Assembly (NCBI GenBank): GCA_030650025.1
Contig: JAUSEN010000005.1
Location: forward strand, 3,631 to 67,630
Origin: Candidatus Magasanikiibacteriota bacterium
GTDB taxonomy: Bacteria > Patescibacteriota > Patescibacteriia > Magasanikbacterales > GWA2-37-8
DNA: 64,000 nucleotides
Direction: 5' to 3'
In this document: in pieces, positions 15,701 to 62,406 of the stretch
Numbering within the stretch: the stretch's first letter is position 1
Layout of the letters: every line of letters begins with the position of its first letter
Made by a program: the position numbers and the translations under genes
Notes under the pieces: model-generated
What the model was told of the DNA's origin: nothing
The model's input: only the letters and a program-made list of their open reading frames with translations
The model's database searches: none

Positions 15701-15727
15701 AAAATTAATAATACAGCACATTTAAAA

Positions 15728-15758
15728 CTCCCCTGACACAATGTCAGGGGAGTTTTTT
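15728..15758 (+). terminator. Rho-independent terminator
   Basis: ctcccctgacacaatgtcaggggag followed by tttttt, immediately after the stop of the 14192..15700 gene. Confidence 0.7.
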
Positions 15759-15760
15759 GG

Positions 15761-15850
15761 TGGACCTAGCCAGCCCCGCACCACGCTGGGTGCGGGGTAA
15801 AAATCGAACTGCCGTCCCGGCAATGCGCCCCGACGTAAAGTCGGGGTAAA
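15761..15850 (-). pseudogene. tRNA-Ala-like 3' partial duplicate (anticodon loop to CCA) with GC-rich hairpin insertions
   Basis: Minus-strand reading ...GCGCATTGCCGGGACGGCAGTTCGATT[TTTACCCCGCACCCAGCGTGGTGCGGGG]CTGGCTAGGTCCACCA matches the 3' part of the adjacent tRNA-Ala(CGC). It carries a 27-nt hairpin in the T-arm, and a second hairpin CCCCGACTTTACGTCGGGG lies just 5'. There is no 5' acceptor strand. Confidence 0.45.
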
Positions 15851-15865
15851 AATGCCTTTGTGTTG

Positions 15866-15936
15866 TGGACCTAGCCAGAATCGGACTGGCGCTTCGGCAA
15901 TGCGAATGCCGCGTCATACCACTAGACCATAGGCCC
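15866..15936 (-). tRNA. tRNA-Ala (anticodon CGC)
   Basis: Hand fold of GGGCCTATGGTCTAGTGGTATGACGCGGCATTCGCATTGCCGAAGCGCCAGTCCGATTCTGGCTAGGTCCA. It has the G3:U70 Ala identity pair, anticodon stem CGGCA/TGCCG, loop TTCGCAT and T-loop TCCGATT. Confidence 0.75.
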
Positions 15937-15980: not shown

Positions 15981-16052
15981 TGGCCCCGGCGCGAATCGAA
16001 CGCACATCCAACCCTTAGGACGGGCTTGTTTTATCCATTAAACTACAGGGCC
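15981..16052 (-). tRNA. tRNA-Arg (anticodon CCU)
   Basis: Hand fold of GGCCCTGTAGTTTAATGGATAAAACAAGCCCGTCCTAAGGGTTGGATGTGCGTTCGATTCGCGCCGGGGCCA. D-stem GTTT/AAAC, anticodon loop GTCCTAA, T-loop TTCGATT. Confidence 0.7.
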
Positions 16053-17789: not shown

Positions 17790-17954
17790 ACAAACGTCGC
17801 TAGTGATGCCTCAACCTCTCCTCATCAAGCCCTGGTTCTTACCTGCGCCCCAGCCGCAGTTCAAGCTCATTCGAGCCTGCTGGGAATCTCTTGTTGAATT
17901 CAAAACTTGTTGGATCCAAGAAGCGAGCCCTGAACCCTACGTGGTTCAGGGATA

Positions 17955-29138: not shown

Positions 29139-31973
29139 TTATAATTTTATTGTCTCCAGCTCATTCCAATTTTTTCCTGCTTTAACTTCGACTCGAACCG
29201 GGACAAGCAATTTTACCACGTTCTCCATGATATCTTTAACCAGCGCGCCAACTTCCGTGGCGCTATTTTTATCCACTTCAAAAATTAATTCATCGTGAAC
29301 TTGGAGGAGTAATTGGACTTTGGACCCTAGACTTTGCCTGCCCGCAACGGCTTCGCCGTAGCGAAGTCGGGCGGGGACTTTGGACGCGACCGCGATCATG
29401 GCCATTTTCATGAGGTCCGCGGCGGTGCCTTGAATGGGGTGGTTAATAGCCATGCGCTCGGCCGCGGAGCGCAGTTGAAAGTTGCTGGCGGTGAGCTCGG
29501 GGATATAACGGCGGCGTCCAAAGAGAGTCTCGCAGTAGCCATTCTCTCTGGTAAATTGTAAAGTTCCGTCCAGATATTTCTTGACGCCGCTAAACTCGCT
29601 AAAATATTTTTTAATAAAATCCCGAGCCTCGGCGTGGGGGATCTCGGCGCGCCAAGCCAAGCCATAAGCGCCCATGCCATAAAGAATGCCAAAATTAACT
29701 TCTTTGGCACTGCGCCGCATTTCTTTGGATACGTCTTTAAGAGGCACGCCATGGATAGCGGCGGCCGTAGCGGTATGGACATCTTCACCAGCCTCAAAAA
29801 TTTCCATGAGGCGCTTATCTTTAGCGAGCGAGGCGACAATGCGCAGTTCAATTTGAGAATAATCGGCGCTTAATAAAACTTTGCCCGGAGGAGCGATAAA
29901 CGCGGAGCGAATGGCTCGCCCGAGAGCAGTACGAACGGGGATGTTTTGTAAATTAGGTTCAGAACTCGAAAGGCGCCCGGTGGCTGTCACCGCCTGATTA
30001 AACGTAGTGTGAATCCGACCGGTGGTTTTGTTTATTAAGGTCGGGAGAACGTCGATGTAAGTATTTTGGAGCTTGGCTAATTCGCGATATTCTTGAATTT
30101 CGTCAACCACCAGATGCACGCCACGCAATTTCTCCAATTGTTCGGCATCAGTAGAGAGGCCAGTTTTGCCTTTTTTTAAACCCGCGGTCGGAATTTGTAA
30201 TTTGTCGAATAAGACTTCGCGTAGTTGGAGAGGCGAAGCAATATTAAATTCCATGCCCGCTAATTTATAAATTTTTTGCGTTAAATTTTTGATAGCTTCA
30301 GCCACGTCTGTAGACAGCCCGCCGAGCTTGACCCGATCAATACTAATCCCGGCCAGTTCCATAGCGACCAACACTTTAATAAGAGGCATTTCCACATTAG
30401 TAAATAAACCTAAATTATTGGCGCTCTCTAATTCTTGTTTTAAAATTTTTCCAGCAGTAGCTAAATAAAATAATTCTTGCGCCGCGGCCCGGGCGTCAAA
30501 GCCAAATAAACTTTCCTGGCCACTGCCGGCTGTCAATTCTTTGCCTAAAGTTTTTAAAATGATCGCGGCGCTATCGTGGGCGCGACTGCCGGGCTGAAGC
30601 AGGTAGGAGGCGATCATGGTGTCGAAAAGATGGCACGCGAGACCCCCTCCCCGCCCGACTTCGCTACGGCGAAGCCGTTGCGGGCGGGCTGGCTCCCCCT
30701 TTGCGAAGGGGGAGGAATGAATTGTCAAAATCTTTACCAATTGTTTTAAATCGTGGCCGATGACTGTGATTTCTGGGTTGGTAAAAATTCCGTCAATTAC
30801 GTAGGGGCGGGGTAACCCCGCCCCTACGGGATATTGATTTAAATTGTTCGGGACAAAAAAACCTTCGTTACCAACGACAATCACAAACCCATTTAAATTT
30901 CCGGAAAAAACATCATTGCCAGAGAAAGCGGCGCGACAAGCAAATTCTTTGGCGATTAAAATTTTCTCAACTAAATTTTTTACTTCTGATGTCGATTTTA
31001 TTTCTGTAAAAATAAAATCGATTAATTTTTGGCTTTTTTTAATTTTTGGTTTTTTTTCTTCGGCAGTATCAGGGCTCCCCGGCAAACGTTTTAATAGCGA
31101 AATAAATTCCAATTTTTGAAATAAGGCCGTAATCGGACCACGATCCAGCTCTTTAATAGCGCAATCCTCCAATTTAAAATTTAACCCCGGCACAGCGTTA
31201 TCTAATTTGGAAAGTTCATAGCTCATCTCGGCGCTCTCTTCGCCGGCAATTAATTTCTGAAGCACTCCGGGTTTAATTTTTTTGGTTAATTGTTCTTTGC
31301 TAGTTGTTAATTGTTTATAAATATTTTTTAAACTGCCAAATTCTTTAATTAAATCAGTCGCGGTTTTGGCGCCAATGCCCGGCACGCCGGGGATATTGTC
31401 CGAAGCATCACCGCGCAAGGCTTTGTAATCGAGCATCAGCTCGGGCCCAAAACCATACCTGTCTTTTACCGCCTTTTCATCATAAATAACCGTATCAGAC
31501 AAACCTTTTTTAAGAGTATAAACTTTTATGCCATCGTGCACGAGTTGCAGGGTGTCCATGTCGCCCGTGACGATAAATATTTCTAGTTCTTTATTTTGGG
31601 CTAATTTTTTATTTATCTCCACCAATGTGCCAATAACATCATCGGCTTCGTAGCCTTCCTGCTCAAAAATCGGGAATTTAAAAGCGCGTACTAAATCGTG
31701 CACCAGGGGAATTTGCGAATACAGTTCCGGATCAGCCTTAACGCGCGTGGCTTTGTATTGATCATAGCGTTTTAAGCGGGCATGGCTGCCGCCCGCCACA
31801 TCAAAAGTAACGGCTAGATGCGTGGGCTTTAAGTCTTTAAGGGTCTTTAAAAGCATGGAAGTAAAGCCATAGACAGCATTAACCATGAGCCCGCTTTTAG
31901 TATTCATGGGCGGAATAGCGTGGTAAGCCCGATGGATAATGGCGTTACCATCGATAATTACTAATCGGTTCAT
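29139..31973 (-). CDS. polA: DNA polymerase I
   Basis: 944 aa. N-terminal 5'-nuclease (MNRLVIIDGNAIIHRAYHA), polymerase motifs A (LLSADYSQIELRI), B (RRSAKEVNFGILYG) and C (QVHDELIFEV). Confidence 0.95.
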   Translation of the reverse strand: MNRLVIIDGNAIIHRAYHAIPPMNTKSGLMVNAVYGFTSMLLKTLKDLKPTHLAVTFDVAGGSHARLKRYDQYKATRVKADPELYSQIPLVHDLVRAFKFPIFEQEGYEADDVIGTLVEINKKLAQNKELEIFIVTGDMDTLQLVHDGIKVYTLKKGLSDTVIYDEKAVKDRYGFGPELMLDYKALRGDASDNIPGVPGIGAKTATDLIKEFGSLKNIYKQLTTSKEQLTKKIKPGVLQKLIAGEESAEMSYELSKLDNAVPGLNFKLEDCAIKELDRGPITALFQKLEFISLLKRLPGSPDTAEEKKPKIKKSQKLIDFIFTEIKSTSEVKNLVEKILIAKEFACRAAFSGNDVFSGNLNGFVIVVGNEGFFVPNNLNQYPVGAGLPRPYVIDGIFTNPEITVIGHDLKQLVKILTIHSSPFAKGEPARPQRLRRSEVGRGGGLACHLFDTMIASYLLQPGSRAHDSAAIILKTLGKELTAGSGQESLFGFDARAAAQELFYLATAGKILKQELESANNLGLFTNVEMPLIKVLVAMELAGISIDRVKLGGLSTDVAEAIKNLTQKIYKLAGMEFNIASPLQLREVLFDKLQIPTAGLKKGKTGLSTDAEQLEKLRGVHLVVDEIQEYRELAKLQNTYIDVLPTLINKTTGRIHTTFNQAVTATGRLSSSEPNLQNIPVRTALGRAIRSAFIAPPGKVLLSADYSQIELRIVASLAKDKRLMEIFEAGEDVHTATAAAIHGVPLKDVSKEMRRSAKEVNFGILYGMGAYGLAWRAEIPHAEARDFIKKYFSEFSGVKKYLDGTLQFTRENGYCETLFGRRRYIPELTASNFQLRSAAERMAINHPIQGTAADLMKMAMIAVASKVPARLRYGEAVAGRQSLGSKVQLLLQVHDELIFEVDKNSATEVGALVKDIMENVVKLLVPVRVEVKAGKNWNELETIKL
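29345..29380. repeat. GC-rich palindromic element, in-frame within the polA polymerase domain; reverse complement of the 30639..30678 element
   Basis: cccgcaacggcttcgccgtagcgaagtcgggcgggg. Translated as part of VPARLRYGEAVAGRQ just before motif C. Confidence 0.7.
30633..30706. repeat. GC-rich composite palindromic element, in-frame within polA (exo-domain-equivalent region)
   Basis: ccccctccccgcccgacttcgctacggcgaagccgttgcgggcgggctggctccccctttgcgaagggggagg. The core at 30639-30678 is the reverse complement of 29345-29380. Translated as FAKGEPARPQRLRRSEVGRGGGLA. Confidence 0.7.
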
Positions 31974-32060: not shown

Positions 32061-32099
32061 CCACGGCCCGATAGCCAAGTTAGAAAGGCAAAGGTCTGC
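32061..32099 (+). pseudogene. 5' partial copy of tRNA-Cys (4-nt leader plus positions 1-35), interrupted in the anticodon loop by a hairpin element
   Basis: ccacGGCCCGATAGCCAAGTTAGAAAGGCAAAGGTCTGC is identical to 32156-32194. After the 31-nt insert the sequence resumes with AAAACCT (anticodon stem 3' side) and then diverges. Confidence 0.6.
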
Positions 32100-32130
32100 C
32101 TCCCTACGGGAGATCCCCCGCAGGGGGACA
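32100..32130. repeat. 31-nt double-hairpin element, left copy (perfect inverted copy at 32506..32536)
   Basis: ctccctacgggagatcccccgcagggggaca. Two tandem hairpins: tccc/ggga and ccccc/ggggg. Confidence 0.8.
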
Positions 32131-32159
32131 AAACCTATTATAAACTTATTAATTACCAC

Positions 32160-32232
32160 GGCCCGATAGCCAAGTTAGAAAGGCAAAGGTCTGCAAAACC
32201 TTCATGCGCGGGTGCAACTCCCGCTCGGGCCT
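32160..32232 (+). tRNA. tRNA-Cys (anticodon GCA)
   Basis: GGCCCGATAGCCAAGTTAGAAAGGCAAAGGTCTGCAAAACCTTCATGCGCGGGTGCAACTCCCGCTCGGGCCT. Acceptor GGCCCGA/TCGGGCC, U73 discriminator typical of Cys, anticodon loop CTGCAAA. The T-loop TGCAACT is slightly non-canonical. Confidence 0.6.
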
Positions 32233-32235
32233 CAC

Positions 32236-32500
32236 TGTGTACTACGTTTACGCACTGCAAAGTCTGAAAAATAAAAATTGGCTATATATTGGCTCGTCAG
32301 AAAATTTACGGGCCCGTTTTGATGAACATACAAGCGGAAAAGTTATTTCTACAGCTAAATATAGACCACTTCGATTAGTTTATTACGAAGCATTTCTGAA
32401 CAAGAAAGATGCGACTCTACGAGAATATCAGCTTAAACATAATAGCCAGCAGAAAGAACAGCTAAAACTTAAACTTATCAATTCTCTTCAGGCTGAATAG
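32236..32500 (+). CDS. Small GIY-YIG (URI-domain, YhbQ/UPF0213-like) nuclease
   Basis: VYYVYALQSLKNKNWLYIGSSENLRARFDEHTSGK...LRLVYYEAFLNKKDATLREYQLK. The ORF-track ATG at 32204 lies inside the tRNA, so a GTG at 32236 is proposed as the start. Paralog of the 49112..49369 gene. Confidence 0.6.
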
Positions 32501-32505
32501 TTGGG

Positions 32506-32536
32506 TGTCCCCCTGCGGGGGATCTCCCGTAGGGAG
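32506..32536. repeat. 31-nt double-hairpin element, right copy (inverted)
   Basis: tgtccccctgcgggggatctcccgtagggag is the exact reverse complement of 32100-32130. Confidence 0.8.
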
Positions 32537-32596
32537 ACAAGTCCCTCCGTGGCCTCACAATTTTCTTGTTTCTTGCCTGGCAAGATTTTTTTATTT

Positions 32597-48931: not shown

Positions 48932-48986
48932 TGGTGGACCCTGTCGGGCTCGAACCGACCACCTCCGCATTGCAAACGCGGCGCTC
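48932..48986 (-). pseudogene. 3' portion (D-stem 3' strand to CCA) of a split tRNA-Ala(UGC)-like gene
   Basis: Minus-strand reading GAGCGCCGCGTTTGCAATGCGGAGGTGGTCGGTTCGAGCCCGACAGGGTCCACCA: anticodon loop TTTGCAA, T-loop TTCGAGC, encoded CCA. The matching 5' piece GGGCCCTTAGCTCAT lies at 49443-49457, separated by ~456 bp. Confidence 0.55.
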
Positions 48987-49038
48987 CCGTGCACCACAAG
49001 GGTGCACGGCCATGAACCCTTGTGGTTCATGGTACCAG
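48983..49038. repeat. 56-nt double-hairpin direct repeat, copy 1 (copy 2 at 49387..49442)
   Basis: gctcccgtgcaccacaagggtgcacggccatgaacccttgtggttcatggtaccag. Hairpins ccgtgcacc/ggtgcacgg and catgaacc/ggttcatg. Copy 2 is identical except for one nt. Confidence 0.85.
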
Positions 49039-49110
49039 TGGACCTGAGGGGATTCGCACCCCTGACCTTCGCCTTGCAAAGGCGCCGCTCTACTACTGAG
49101 CTACAGGCCC
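49039..49110 (-). tRNA. tRNA-Ala (anticodon UGC)
   Basis: GGGCCTGTAGCTCAGTAGTAGAGCGGCGCCTTTGCAAGGCGAAGGTCAGGGGTGCGAATCCCCTCAGGTCCA. G3:U70 pair, anticodon loop TTTGCAA. Confidence 0.8.
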
Positions 49111-49111
49111 T

Positions 49112-49369
49112 TTATTTAGTTGACCTCAAGTATTCGTACAGCATTAATCGTAATGTTGTTTTGCCTTTGTTTGTTTTGAAATATTTTTCTCTCCTCTTGG
49201 CATCATGCTCGTGTAAAAAGGCCTCATAAAAAATAAGTTTGACCGGTAAAAATTTGCTTGTTGTTTTATCCCCACCCGCGGAGTGTTCTCTGACTCGGCG
49301 TTTAAGATCGGCTGAATAGCCCGTGTAAAATTGTTTATTGCACATCATTAATATGTAGGTATAAAACAT
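49112..49369 (-). CDS. Small GIY-YIG (YhbQ/UPF0213-like) nuclease, paralog of the 32236..32500 gene
   Basis: MFYTYILMMCNKQFYTGYSADLKRRVREHSAGGDKTTSKFLPVKLIFYEAFLHEHDAKRREKYFK aligns with the other GIY-YIG protein. The ORF-track N-terminus (to 49417) is encoded by repeat copy 2 and is probably not translated. The stop lies 1 nt from the tRNA-Ala 5' end. Confidence 0.6.
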   Translation of the reverse strand: MFYTYILMMCNKQFYTGYSADLKRRVREHSAGGDKTTSKFLPVKLIFYEAFLHEHDAKRREKYFKTNKGKTTLRLMLYEYLRSTK

Positions 49370-49386
49370 ATTTGCAGATATATATT

Positions 49387-49442
49387 GCTCCCGTGCACCA
49401 CAAGGGTGCACGGCCATGAACCCTTGTGGTTCATGGTTCCAG
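49387..49442. repeat. 56-nt double-hairpin direct repeat, copy 2
   Basis: gctcccgtgcaccacaagggtgcacggccatgaacccttgtggttcatggttccag. Confidence 0.85.
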
Positions 49443-50654: not shown

Positions 50655-50756
50655 AATGTCGTGAATACCCCCTCGCTTTTCTCGGCCCCCGCCCAGGGCG
50701 GGCTCGGGGCGACCCGCCTCGGGCGGGTCAAACCCGCTCGGGAATATTCACGACAT
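50653..50756. repeat. Approx. 105-bp palindromic element: 15-bp terminal inverted repeats flanking GC-rich internal hairpins
   Basis: ataatgtcgtgaata (50653-50667) ... cccgcccagggcggg ... gacccgcctcgggcgggtc ... tattcacgacattat (50742-50756). The arms overlap the start of the 50133..50654 gene and the last 8 codons of the 50728.. gene. Confidence 0.75.
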
Positions 50757-52047
50757 TATTTTTTGAGGCAATTACTAATCCAGCGATTATCCAAAATAAA
50801 AACGCTAGATCATTTTTAAAATAGGGCACGTCTATTAGGCCGTGAATTAAGATGGCGATGAGGCCAGCGCAAAGCGCGGCGGCGAAAATGTTTTGTTTAT
50901 TAGCGGCGCGCCAACTGTATTGTAGCAAAGTAAAGAGGAGTAGTAAAAAAGCGGTGGCTCCGAGGAGGCCAATTTCGCTCCAGAAGTTAAGCAAAATATT
51001 ATGGGGGTAAATAAGGCGCTCTAGTTCTGCGGGGTTATAGAGCGGTTTTTCGATCTTGCGAAAATATTGGCGGATGCCAGCGCCAAAAATAAAGTTTTTG
51101 GGAGTAGCGGTGAGAAAGGTGGCAGTGTGGCTCCAGAGTAATAACCGATTATTGCCAGAGCGGATTTTTGTGGAGAATTTAGCGCGCAAAGCCGAATTAT
51201 TTAACCCTAGGAAAGAAATGGCGATTATGACTAAAGCATAGACGAGGAGGTGTTTGAAAATTTTGGGGCGATTTTTAGAGTTTAAGAAAAACCAAACTGA
51301 TAAGCCAGCCACGAGGGCGATAGCGCCGCCATATGATTGGCTGAAGATAAGGGCAGCACAGCCAAGAATGAAGGCGAACAGAGTTAGGAAAAAATATTTT
51401 TTTTGGTTAGTTTGCTTAAAATTTTTAAGAAGTGAGAGGGAGAGCATTAAAATTGGAACAAGATATAAGGCGAGGGCATTGGGAGATGTAAAATAGCCGA
51501 CCGCGCGGCCGCGAGTGATGTCATCCCAAAGGCTCGGCGGGTAGAGATTGCCAGAAAGACTTTGGATAATGGCGACGATGCTAAGGGGAATGGTGGAAGT
51601 GAGAAGAGCGGCGACGATGTTTTTTGACATCTCCCCCGACTCCTCCTTGTTAGGAGGGGGGGCGAGGCGGCCGATTAACACCAAGCAAAACAACATGGGT
51701 TCGAGAAAATAGGCGCGCCACTGGCCGAGCGAGTACCACCACATGTCAGAAACAAAAATACCAGATATTGAAGCCAAAAAAAACACCGCTAGAGAAGCGG
51801 CAAAAAATTTGTTAGCCGAAAAGAATTGTTTAATCTTCGGCCAATCGGCGCGGGCGTATTTAATAAGCCAGACAAGAAAAATTATGCCAAAGCTTACTTC
51901 GAGGAGCGTGGTGGGCAGACCCACAATAGTAAAACGAATCAAATAACCGGGGAGAAGCAGGATAAAAATAAAAAGCGCGGAGCGAAAATTGCGCCAGGCG
52001 AGGTACGCAAGCAGTAAGCAGTAAGCAGTAAGCGCTAGGTAAGGCAT
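50728..52047 (-). CDS. O-antigen-ligase-like (Wzy_C-type) polytopic membrane protein, second paralog
   Basis: More than 10 TM segments with the IFGAGIRQYF motif region. Start chosen at MPYLALTAYCLLLAY (52047), which avoids overlap with the AbiEii gene; the ORF-track start is 52110. Confidence 0.55.
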   Translation of the reverse strand: MPYLALTAYCLLLAYLAWRNFRSALFIFILLLPGYLIRFTIVGLPTTLLEVSFGIIFLVWLIKYARADWPKIKQFFSANKFFAASLAVFFLASISGIFVSDMWWYSLGQWRAYFLEPMLFCLVLIGRLAPPPNKEESGEMSKNIVAALLTSTIPLSIVAIIQSLSGNLYPPSLWDDITRGRAVGYFTSPNALALYLVPILMLSLSLLKNFKQTNQKKYFFLTLFAFILGCAALIFSQSYGGAIALVAGLSVWFFLNSKNRPKIFKHLLVYALVIIAISFLGLNNSALRAKFSTKIRSGNNRLLLWSHTATFLTATPKNFIFGAGIRQYFRKIEKPLYNPAELERLIYPHNILLNFWSEIGLLGATAFLLLLFTLLQYSWRAANKQNIFAAALCAGLIAILIHGLIDVPYFKNDLAFLFWIIAGLVIASKNNVVNIPERV

Positions 52048-62209: not shown

Positions 62210-62320
62210 AGTGATTTCATTTTATCTGTTTATACGGTCGTTGGCAAGCGGAGAGACCCCGCTACTTGAGGGCGGGGTAAACTTGATTTTTCTTCAGAGA
62301 TCTGGTATTTTAGAGCAGTT

Positions 62321-62400
62321 ATATATGGAGAGGTGGCGCACGCGCACACCGAATTAGATTACACATGGAGAGGTGGCGCACGCGCACACCGAATTAGATT
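62321..62400 (+). repeat. Two tandem 40-bp repeats, each duplicating the first ~12 nt of tRNA-Ser plus upstream -10-like sequence
   Basis: a(t/c)atggagaggtggcgcacgcgcacaccgaattagatt repeated twice, then a third copy of acatggagaggtg continues into the intact tRNA. Confidence 0.8.
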
Positions 62401-62406
62401 ATACAT

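Follow-up and report, generated by a model that had tools for sequence, protein, structure and literature searches.

What is the tRNA-like segment that follows an intact tRNA-Ala(CGC) gene in a Candidatus Magasanikiibacteriota bacterium, and how did hairpins come to interrupt it? The locus lies within a 64-kb stretch of contig JAUSEN010000005.1 (the window; all coordinates follow its forward-strand numbering, and L-numbers such as L121 or L208 denote the contigs and genomes with which it was compared). Our reading, which we hold with moderate confidence, is that the segment is a redundant copy of tRNA-Ala(CGC) in which hairpin units have been inserted in the anticodon and T-loops, and that these units are repeats partnered with small Ssn-like GIY-YIG nucleases. 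Ssn nucleases are single-domain GIY-YIG proteins of 94 amino acids (aa) that bind the hairpin repeats by which the genes encoding them are flanked (PMC11893778). They cleave single-stranded DNA on the upstream side of the repeat and close to it, and only in one of its orientations; the layout has been likened to that of insertion sequences (PMC11893778). Taken alone, the locus is a minor relic, and it is of value as a route to a broad association of tRNA genes, hairpins and GIY-YIG genes in bacteria of the candidate phyla radiation (CPR).

The partial copy behind tRNA-Ala(CGC)

The intact tRNA-Ala(CGC) gene (Table 1) has the G3:U70 pair and a T-loop reading TCCGATT, does not encode CCA, and is presumably functional. 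The original prediction placed this gene on the minus strand with a copy of its 3' part directly downstream, and ARAGORN, Rfam and a repeat search all agree with that arrangement. In the repeat search, gene and copy matched colinearly over 26 nt (81%) and over 21 nt (86%, 14 nt of them exact), the 12-mer ATTTTTACCCCG is duplicated between the two, and without its two inserts the copy agrees with positions 27-72 of the gene at 40 of 46 sites. The copy has neither a 5' acceptor strand nor a D-arm, is colinear with positions ~27-73 of the gene and then continues into CCA. In reading order it consists of GGCATT, the insert TTTACCCCGACTTTACGTCGGGG (HPa), CGCATTGCCGGGACGGCAGTTCGATT (15827-15802), the insert TTTACCCCGCACCCAGCGTGGTGCGGGG (HPb), CTGGCTAGGTCCA (15773-15761) and CCA (15760-15758); the segment between the two inserts reads CGCATTGCC GGGAC GGCAG TTCGATT, and that 3' of the T-loop insert reads CTGGC TAGGTCCA CCA. 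The encoded CCA and the absence of a 5' acceptor strand were thus correctly anticipated, but the copy had been thought to begin in the anticodon loop, and it begins at about position 27, in the 5' strand of the anticodon stem. Therefore the second hairpin, which had been placed immediately 5' of the copy, lies inside it, in the anticodon loop. The other hairpin is indeed an insertion in the T-arm, although it measures 28 nt rather than 27 nt and sits in the T-loop between positions 60 and 61.

The partial copy yields no tRNA call with ARAGORN and no Rfam tRNA match at E<=10, and its stems contain the mismatches A:G at 27:43 and G:G at 50:64. When it is freed of its inserts and joined to the 5' part of the intact gene, ARAGORN calls tRNA-Ala(cgc). 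As it possesses neither a 5' acceptor strand nor a D-arm, the copy cannot be a tRNA. Nor is it an assembly artefact, since an orthologous arrangement occurs in L211 and L212, which are independent assemblies of one relative. The feature at 15758-15856 is real, and is neither an artefact nor a functional tRNA.

The locus was compared in genomes whose TrmB neighbour is 70-72% identical to that of the window. The orthologous 3' copy of L211 and L212 consists of GGCATTTTTACC, 49 nt of three hairpins replacing the anticodon, and TTGCC AAGAC GGCAG TTCAATT CTGCC TAGGTCCA, followed by a terminator. In L210 and L213 there is no partial copy, and tRNA-Ala(CGC) runs straight into a terminator. In L215 the copy is instead a 5' one: its D-loop holds a CCCGCCAAAGGCGGG hairpin, and the intact gene downstream of it is a different allele. 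A second, nearly complete tRNA-Arg(CCT) occurs in L210 and L214, its D-loop holding a hairpin pair; in L210 this copy is another allele with compensatory stem differences. The TCCGATT T-loop and a CAACA trailer of the intact tRNA-Ala(CGC) are common to L210, L211 and L213, which identifies the intact gene as the lineage's own. We had considered the opposite assignment, in which the copy, with its CCA and canonical T-loop, is the native remnant and the intact gene an import; the TCCGATT and CAACA of the relatives contradict it. In L213 (2305-2345), the hairpin CTCAGTCCGCTGAGGCGGACTGAG stands directly 3' of tRNA-Ala(CGC) with the direct repeat CTTCG on both sides, which may be a target duplication.

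Hairpins, tRNA genes and small nucleases

HPb belongs to a hairpin family with an ACC-N4-7-GGT core, here called type II, of which the window contains six units against 0.045 expected: HPb itself, two pairs around a nuclease gene (49112-49369) and a solitary unit (17928-17951). The nuclease gene lies at the tRNA-Ala(UGC) locus, where one allele ('N') is split exactly at D-loop position 21/22 by about 400 nt with a 68-nt direct repeat (93%) at the bounds, and a complete allele ('E') lies inside the interruption. ARAGORN reads the joined fragments 49457-49437 and 48986-48932 as a perfect tRNA-Ala(tgc) of 76 nt, which has G3:U70 and encodes CCA; the 3' fragment reads GAGCG, anticodon arm, T-arm, AGGGTCC and ACCA, and TGGTA separates 'E' from the right hairpin pair. 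ARAGORN calls seven tRNAs in the window and Rfam backs six of them; a second tRNA-Ala(tgc) call at 48932-49005 (Rfam 20 bits) is a false one, produced by the 3' fragment. L208, another Magasanikbacteria genome, has kept the order MgtC, tRNA-Ala(UGC), uppS, ribonucleotide reductase, and its syntenic site holds one plain tRNA-Ala(UGC) upstream of uppS and no nuclease gene, hairpin pair or fragments; L208 is a distant relative (UppS 50% identical), and no within-species pair with and without the nuclease gene was found.

The first element of the tRNA-Cys locus is a 5' half copy (32065-32099; tRNA positions 1-35, 100% identical, forming a 39-nt direct repeat at 100%), behind which come the left hairpin pair, the intact tRNA-Cys (32160-32233), a second GIY-YIG gene (32237-32500), an inverted hairpin pair (32506-32539) and a degenerate 3' remnant. 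The tRNA and nuclease gene are bracketed by 34-nt inverted repeats (97%) of two hairpins each. Upstream of tRNA-Ser(CGA) (62319-62406) lie two tandem 40-nt units, each composed of ~17 nt of upstream sequence, tRNA positions 1-9 (GGAGAGGTG) and the GC-rich 14-mer GCGCACGCGCACAC. The pattern of the tRNA-Ala(CGC) locus had been predicted to recur at the Ala(UGC), Cys and Ser loci. Recur it does, but not with the same geometry: fragments lie on both sides at Ala(UGC), a 5' half upstream and a 3' remnant downstream at Cys, and tandem units at Ser(CGA).

Both nuclease open reading frames (ORFs) of the window, 49112-49369 (85 aa) and 32237-32500 (87 aa), are catalytic-domain-only GIY-YIG proteins and lie outside the partial copy; only PF01541 reaches the Pfam cut-off, and one of them has two further sub-threshold matches to related nuclease domains. 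The conserved residues in 29 homologues are Tyr/Tyr, Arg, His and Glu. The NCBIfam model for group I intron endonucleases scored far below its cut-off. Among solved structures the nearest are UPF0213 BH0048 and EF2693 (E about 1e-14), with SLX1 matched only faintly, and a tblastn search of plasmids with the nuclease gave Bacillus subtilis YazA (40% identity) as its sole match; a search of the literature on YhbQ, YazA and UPF0213 brought nothing useful. By analogy, the window nuclease probably works like Ssn; we do not call it Ssn, because the published repeat consensus is unmatched. The gene at 49112-49369 is the candidate trans-acting partner of the type II hairpins in this genome.

A metagenome scan with the alignment of the 29 homologues led to 80 more loci, and the resulting set holds 83 non-redundant ORFs. 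With a tRNA required to lie no more than 300 nt from the nuclease ORF (background 0.07 tRNA per 600 nt), 56 of the 83 qualify, and in all 56 the tRNA is on the same strand (downstream in 20, upstream in 34 and on both sides in 2). Closer homologues (60-73% identical) were traced to contigs that include L121 (tRNA-Lys), L123 (tRNA-Leu-CAA) and L125 (tRNA-Leu-CAG), which have a common layout, in which a hairpin pair parts tRNA positions 1-21 from positions 22-25 and a short spacer then leads to the GIY-YIG gene and an intact tRNA. The first hairpin of L123 is identical to that of the window, and the remaining hairpins differ by compensatory changes. Two layouts recur more widely. In the first, tRNA positions 1 to X, two hairpins, about 5 nt more of the tRNA, the nuclease gene and the intact tRNA follow one another; the second is its mirror image, with the intact tRNA, the nuclease gene, about 6 nt, two hairpins and the remaining tRNA to its 3' end. 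Hairpin repeats flank nuclease genes at the UGC and Cys loci of the window and in L121, L123, L125, L126, L128 and others.

Comparison of the adjacent tRNAs with nearby sequence by short-word BLAST gave 49 matches in about 30 loci, and seed-chaining located 35 hairpin-interrupted partial tRNA copies in 25 loci. The inserts fall in the T-loop in 13 of these copies, in the anticodon loop in 10, in the D-loop in five (four further D-loop cases were missed by seed-chaining) and elsewhere in seven, so that 28 of the 35 occupy loop-coding positions. Partial tRNA copies are ~9-fold enriched beside hairpins compared with random segments. Arrangements like that of the tRNA-Ala(CGC) locus, with no nuclease gene, occur in L122, L214, L210 and L215. 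That of L122 comprises an intact tRNA-Arg(TCG) and, behind it, at least two 74-nt units in tandem, which repeat the tRNA from the T-arm to CCA and have a hairpin pair in their T-loops. The segment behind tRNA-Ala(CGC) is no intact tRNA, and its arrangement is found at many other tRNA loci, on both of which points the original prediction stands. The association of tRNA genes, hairpins and GIY-YIG genes was not described in the literature that we searched.

The type II hairpins behave as conserved structures. In 20 units from 11 loci, turned into one orientation, 98.9% of cells are paired, six of the nine pairs have changed on both sides, and the covariation score of 0.557 (0.174 in shuffles) was reached by none of 500 shuffles; the pairing collapses once partner columns are slid. 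Within a pair the second hairpin approximates the reverse complement of the first, and thus each DNA strand has one unit in the same orientation. Hairpin types I and II were told apart by simple patterns, and ORF clades were taken from a neighbour-joining tree. Type I hairpins, with the loop GTCAT(C/T)CGAC (the GTCATCCGAC-loop type), occur only beside one contiguous clade, and type II hairpins adjoin other clades, including that of the window nuclease. Hairpin type follows nuclease clade. A search of viral contigs with the hairpin sequences gave no matches.

Many hairpin (HP) pairs are surrounded by characteristic dinucleotides, in the form CG-HP-CG-HP-CG in T-loops, TA-HP-TA-HP-TA in anticodon loops and, in two cases, CA-HP-TG-HP-CA. 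The general pattern is XY-hairpin-rc(XY)-hairpin-XY, where rc denotes the reverse complement, as seen in L122 (1925-1991), L143 (1402-1478) and the T-loop cases L126, L133, L142, L159, L171 and L194. One hairpin type has a GTCAT(C/T)C core that resembles the 5' flank of the NTS. Near-canonical elements of the Neisseria NTS/SRM type, the hairpin repeats of Ssn, are present in Patescibacteria contigs: TGTCATTCCCGCGAAAGCGGGAATCCAG in L128 (1190-1217), ~300 nt upstream of a GIY-YIG gene, and TGTCATTCTGAGTGAAACGAAGAATCC-like units upstream of uppS in L206 (about 1315-1410). L121 and L122 are 99.8% identical over 1.8 kb (NusB, RNase III, GIY-YIG, tRNA-Lys) and diverge right after tRNA-Lys (from 1838); their tRNA-Arg(TCG) alleles differ (79% identical), and the tandem hairpin-bearing 3' copies are found in L122 only.

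The neighbours of the tRNA-Ala(CGC) locus encode two TrmB-type regulators, a 502-aa protein without a Pfam match, and zf-HC2, DUF4325 and HTH proteins; the flanking proteins match those of a Candidatus Magasanikbacteria contig at 100%. The hairpin terminator closes the tRNA-Arg/tRNA-Ala transcription unit and has a homologue in L211. The motif TTTTTACCCCG was tried as a window- or genome-wide repeat and rejected: exact matches occur only twice in the window, both at the locus, and the six obtained with one mismatch do not significantly exceed the 3.6 expected. The gapped pattern AGGTCCAN{80,110}GGTCCACCA, run against 596 Gb of genome contigs, gave 120 random matches and no tRNA-Ala pair, its 16 fixed bases being too few. 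The solitary type II hairpin differs at one loop position from a hairpin adjoining the nuclease gene of L163, and no tRNA fragment was recognised around it. Three intact tRNAs of the window lack the near-universal U55 of the T-loop, namely Ala(CGC) with TCCGATT, Ala(UGC) with TGCGAAT and Cys with TGCAACT. All three sit at loci affected by hairpins or nucleases, and the Ala(CGC) variant is kept in L210, L211 and L213; the altered T-loops might protect against T-loop insertions. A large palindromic intergenic region at 50657-50757 has 13-nt inverted repeats (AATGTCGTGAATA / TATTCACGACATT) around two CCGCC-N3-GGCGG hairpins, a type that interrupts tRNA copies in the relatives L210, L211, L214 and L215. 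Strong GC-rich palindromes also occur at 30693-30714 (CTCCCCCTTTGCGAAGGGGGAG) and 30800-30828 (CGTAGGGGCGGGGTAACCCCGCCCCTACG, with a 13-bp stem).

Table 1 Features of the tRNA-Ala(CGC), tRNA-Ala(UGC) and tRNA-Cys loci and the solitary hairpin, in window coordinates
Feature	Position	Strand	Evidence or remark
tRNA-Arg(CCT), same cluster, upstream of tRNA-Ala(CGC)	15981-16052	minus	ARAGORN, Rfam
Intact tRNA-Ala(CGC)	15866-15936 (ARAGORN/Rfam: 15865/15866-15936)	minus	ARAGORN; Rfam 59.6 bits
Spacer CAACACAAA, 9 nt, intact gene to partial copy	15857-15865	minus	sequence
5'-truncated tRNA-Ala(CGC) copy: anticodon arm, variable region, T-arm, 3' acceptor strand, CCA	15758-15856	minus	
Insert HPa, TTTACCCCGACTTTACGTCGGGG, 23 nt	15828-15850	minus	anticodon loop 33/34; 7-bp stem, loop TTTAC; fold -13.1 kcal/mol
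Insert HPb, TTTACCCCGCACCCAGCGTGGTGCGGGG, 28 nt	15774-15801	minus	T-loop 60/61; 9-bp stem; fold -19.2 kcal/mol
Intrinsic-terminator-like hairpin and T-run	15724-15756	minus	perfect 15-bp stem (15-nt arms, 100% complementary)
Solitary type II hairpin CCCTGAACCCTACGTGGTTCAGGG, between convergent genes	17928-17951	plus	
tRNA-Cys locus	32065-32558 (repeat region from 32061)	plus	repeat search
5' fragment (positions 1-21) of split tRNA-Ala(UGC) 'N', GGGCCCTTAGCTCATCTGGAA	49437-49457	minus	ARAGORN on joined fragments
Left type II hairpin pair CCATGAACCACAAGGGTTCATGG and CCGTGCACCCTTGTGGTGCACGG, then GAGC	49391-49436	minus	
85-aa single-domain GIY-YIG nuclease gene	49112-49369	minus	Pfam PF01541; 100% match to Magasanikbacteria protein
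Complete tRNA-Ala(UGC) 'E' inside interruption	49039-49110	minus	ARAGORN, Rfam 67 bits; T-loop TGCGAAT, no CCA
Right type II hairpin pair, direct repeat of left pair	48987-49032	minus	68-nt direct repeat, 93% identity
3' fragment (positions 22-76 with CCA) of split tRNA-Ala(UGC) 'N'	48932-48986	minus	

Origin of the interrupted copy

The results allow us to propose a series of steps by which such loci could arise. Hairpin units, with or without a nuclease gene, would enter loop-coding positions of tRNA genes. Since tRNA genes are single-copy and essential, an insertion would survive only in a redundant copy, which could be provided by a partial tandem duplication, or by an intact replacement or imported allele placed beside the damaged one. 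The outcome would be an intact tRNA together with a hairpin-interrupted partial copy, the nuclease gene being optional. The locus behind tRNA-Ala(CGC), which itself has no nuclease gene, is the nuclease-less form, probably served in trans by the gene at 49112-49369. One may further speculate that an inverted hairpin pair offers one site per strand to an orientation-specific single-strand nuclease. From the anatomy and distribution of these loci we infer that the hairpins can move and are acted on by the nuclease. The original suggestion of a tRNA-targeting small element agrees well with the clean inserts at loop-coding positions of a redundant copy and with the membership of HPb in a covarying family that flanks tRNA-linked nuclease genes, and is the better half of that interpretation.

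Several observations weigh against this reading. HPa lies outside the type II family, and the link between nucleases and hairpins is a correlation. The nearest characterised relatives of the nuclease are UPF0213 and YazA, not a demonstrated Ssn, and the published SRM consensus, used as the regular expression HGTCWYN(0-2)YYVSBRHN(0-5)WNVSBRGN(0-2)RNCYNB, had no match in the window hairpins and matched one of 87 ORF flanks (L128 only). The flanking dinucleotides could be target duplications or 2-nt staggered cuts, or equally stem extensions; a 2-bp target duplication is not claimed, because the dinucleotides also extend the stems and D-loop pairs are without them. No strain-level pair of a filled and an empty site for a hairpin unit was found among the compared genomes, and the genes of relatives lie at much the same distance from the UGC allele 'N' as from 'E'. 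Finally, the partial copies of the window and L211 are 88% identical (37/42) where the flanking protein is only 70% identical, and the L211 copy is just 61% identical to its own neighbouring tRNA. Judged by these identities, the copy appears surprisingly better preserved than freely decaying junk, and the likeness of the two copies points to common descent. We do not weigh this preservation heavily, since the two copies have lost different loops and two equally close relatives have no copy.

The strongest of the other explanations, although we consider it unlikely, is that of an ordinary decaying pseudogene from a local tandem duplication, which acquired generic REP- or terminator-like palindromes; the nuclease would be unlinked, and both would gather in the little non-coding space that a streamlined genome leaves. 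The stem-breaking changes at 27:43 and 50:64, the lack of a nuclease gene at this locus, the position of HPa outside the nuclease-associated family, the resemblance of the ORF-less tandem units of L122 to plain amplification and the unmatched Ssn-related motif are all compatible with such decay. It does not account for the preference of inserts for loop-coding positions, the tracking of nuclease clade by hairpin type, the constant strand and proximity of tRNAs at 56 of the 83 nuclease genes, the excess in the window of the family that HPb shares with the pairs around the nuclease gene, or the enrichment of partial copies beside hairpins. If it were true, the locus would be an annotation caveat only.

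The preservation of the copy could alternatively mean that it is a functional, co-transcribed tRNA-like RNA, acting either as a signal for 3' processing or stability or as a decoy partner for the upstream 5' acceptor strand, with selection keeping its tRNA-like parts. Those parts are conserved between the window and L211 while the spacer and inserts have diverged and the L211 copy is unlike its own tRNA; moreover, the segment lies between the tRNA and the terminator, and is so probably transcribed. We regard this as improbable, given that L210 and L213, which are just as closely related, lack the copy, that no single loop is preserved (49 nt of hairpins stand in place of the anticodon in L211, and the T-loop is interrupted in the window), that the window copy has stem mismatches, and that analogous copies at other tRNAs begin and end at many positions. 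The whole transcript folds well (z = -5.9), with the 5' acceptor strand of the tRNA paired with the downstream 3' strand, but this fold is uninformative because the duplicated 3' strand alone produces it.

Very improbable is an attL/attR scar of a since-deleted integrase-mediated element that targeted the 3' part of tRNA-Ala(CGC), which was the other half of the original interpretation (a recombination scar typical of integrative elements). The layout is classical, in that a full tRNA stands before a displaced 3' copy which has retained CCA and a native-looking terminator, the direct repeat of the tRNA 3' part is present, and there is an archaeal precedent for a tRNA fragment beside a replacement tRNA at a recombinase element (PMC3293823). 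What decides against a scar is that no integrase or recombinase lies within several kb (Pfam on ORFs within about 3 kb found none), that gene and copy are only 9 nt apart, and that a single-domain GIY-YIG nuclease is the feature common to the 83 related loci and the recurrent partner of tRNAs at 56 of them. In addition, upstream 5' fragments are as common as downstream copies, a pattern that 3'-end-targeting integrases do not give. A functional intron-containing or split tRNA, with the hairpins removed at the RNA level, is suggested by inserts in loops, as in archaeal non-canonical introns, and by arms that are largely intact once the inserts are removed, but is effectively refuted by the missing 5' third, the absence of any ARAGORN or Rfam call, the bacterial nature of the genome (no bacterial splicing endonuclease for such inserts is known), and the complete isoacceptor gene 9 nt upstream.

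Returning to hairpin insertion into a redundant tRNA copy, we tentatively propose a wider interpretation, in which we have less confidence than in that of the locus itself and which may prove wrong. The loci might represent an undescribed class of selfish elements in Patescibacteria, composed of a catalytic-domain-only GIY-YIG nuclease and an inverted hairpin pair, that enters loop-coding positions of tRNA (and probably rRNA) genes and persists by means of a duplicated or imported intact tRNA. The tRNA genes would thereby be repeatedly split, replaced and exchanged between lineages, with the partial copies acting as portable homology for recombination, and the tRNA-Ala(CGC) locus would be a nuclease-less satellite. 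If true, the Ssn-type nucleases, described in 2025, would gain a concrete genomic role in remodelling and replacing essential single-copy tRNA genes in a large, poorly understood group. Such a class would also explain the abundance of small GIY-YIG genes in CPR genomes, the odd extra or partial tRNA calls in CPR, such as the false tRNA-Ala(tgc) of the window, and the exchange of tRNA alleles between lineages, and it would supply natural nuclease/hairpin pairs with readable target sites for single-strand DNA tools.

Comparison with known systems

The closest parallel is Ssn. There as here, a small single-domain GIY-YIG nuclease (94 aa there, about 85 aa here) is encoded by a gene flanked by hairpin inverted repeats of 20-50 nt in a layout like that of insertion sequences, the repeats are also scattered in the genome, and variants of the repeat and of the protein co-vary (PMC11893778). 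The two differ in that the SRM consensus is unmatched here and the nearest relatives found here are UPF0213 and YazA. The Ssn paper mentions neither tRNA genes nor Patescibacteria, and insertion into tRNA loops and partial or replacement tRNA copies are not described there (PMC11893778). With tRNA-targeting integrative elements, as in Caldiarchaeum (PMC3293823), our loci have in common an intact tRNA beside a displaced partial copy, with function kept. Unlike those elements, they have no integrase, are tiny (0-400 nt), have fragments on either side of the intact gene and breakpoints in the D, anticodon and T loops, and contain copies interrupted by palindromic hairpins.

The SegB gene of phage T4 is likewise a GIY-YIG gene among tRNA genes, and its presence varies between relatives (PMC2330249), as that of the window nuclease gene may. 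SegB, however, is a multi-domain, phage-borne enzyme that cuts double-stranded DNA, and T4 has no hairpin pairs or partial tRNA duplicates (PMC2330249), whereas the window proteins have no separate DNA-binding domain, in which they differ from Seg-like homing endonucleases in general. The REP/BIME-RAYT and IS200/IS605 systems also possess short GC-rich palindromes, often in inverted pairs, which are thought to be handled as single-stranded DNA hairpins by a small dedicated enzyme encoded nearby. That enzyme is an HUH Y1 transposase, not a GIY-YIG protein; no such transposase was found adjoining the window tRNA loci, the window ORFs not having been scanned for it systematically. We know of no preference of REPs for tRNA loops.

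Transposing introns and split tRNAs of archaea resemble our loci in the spread of short structured inserts among tRNA loop positions and in tRNA genes that lie in pieces (PMC10714607). The archaeal inserts are spliced by the archaeal endonuclease and their genes stay functional, whereas the copies described here lack parts of the tRNA and are always accompanied by a separate intact gene. In the rRNA genes of CPR bacteria, non-group I/II insertions have been found at the tips or bases of stem-loops, so that the bacterial group, the protein superfamily and the kind of site in a structural RNA gene are all shared with our loci (PMC11270868). The rRNA targets tolerate insertion, no gene duplication is described for them and tRNA is not mentioned (PMC11270868). 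By analogy, these GIY-YIG-bearing non-intron insertions may be the same phenomenon at another target.

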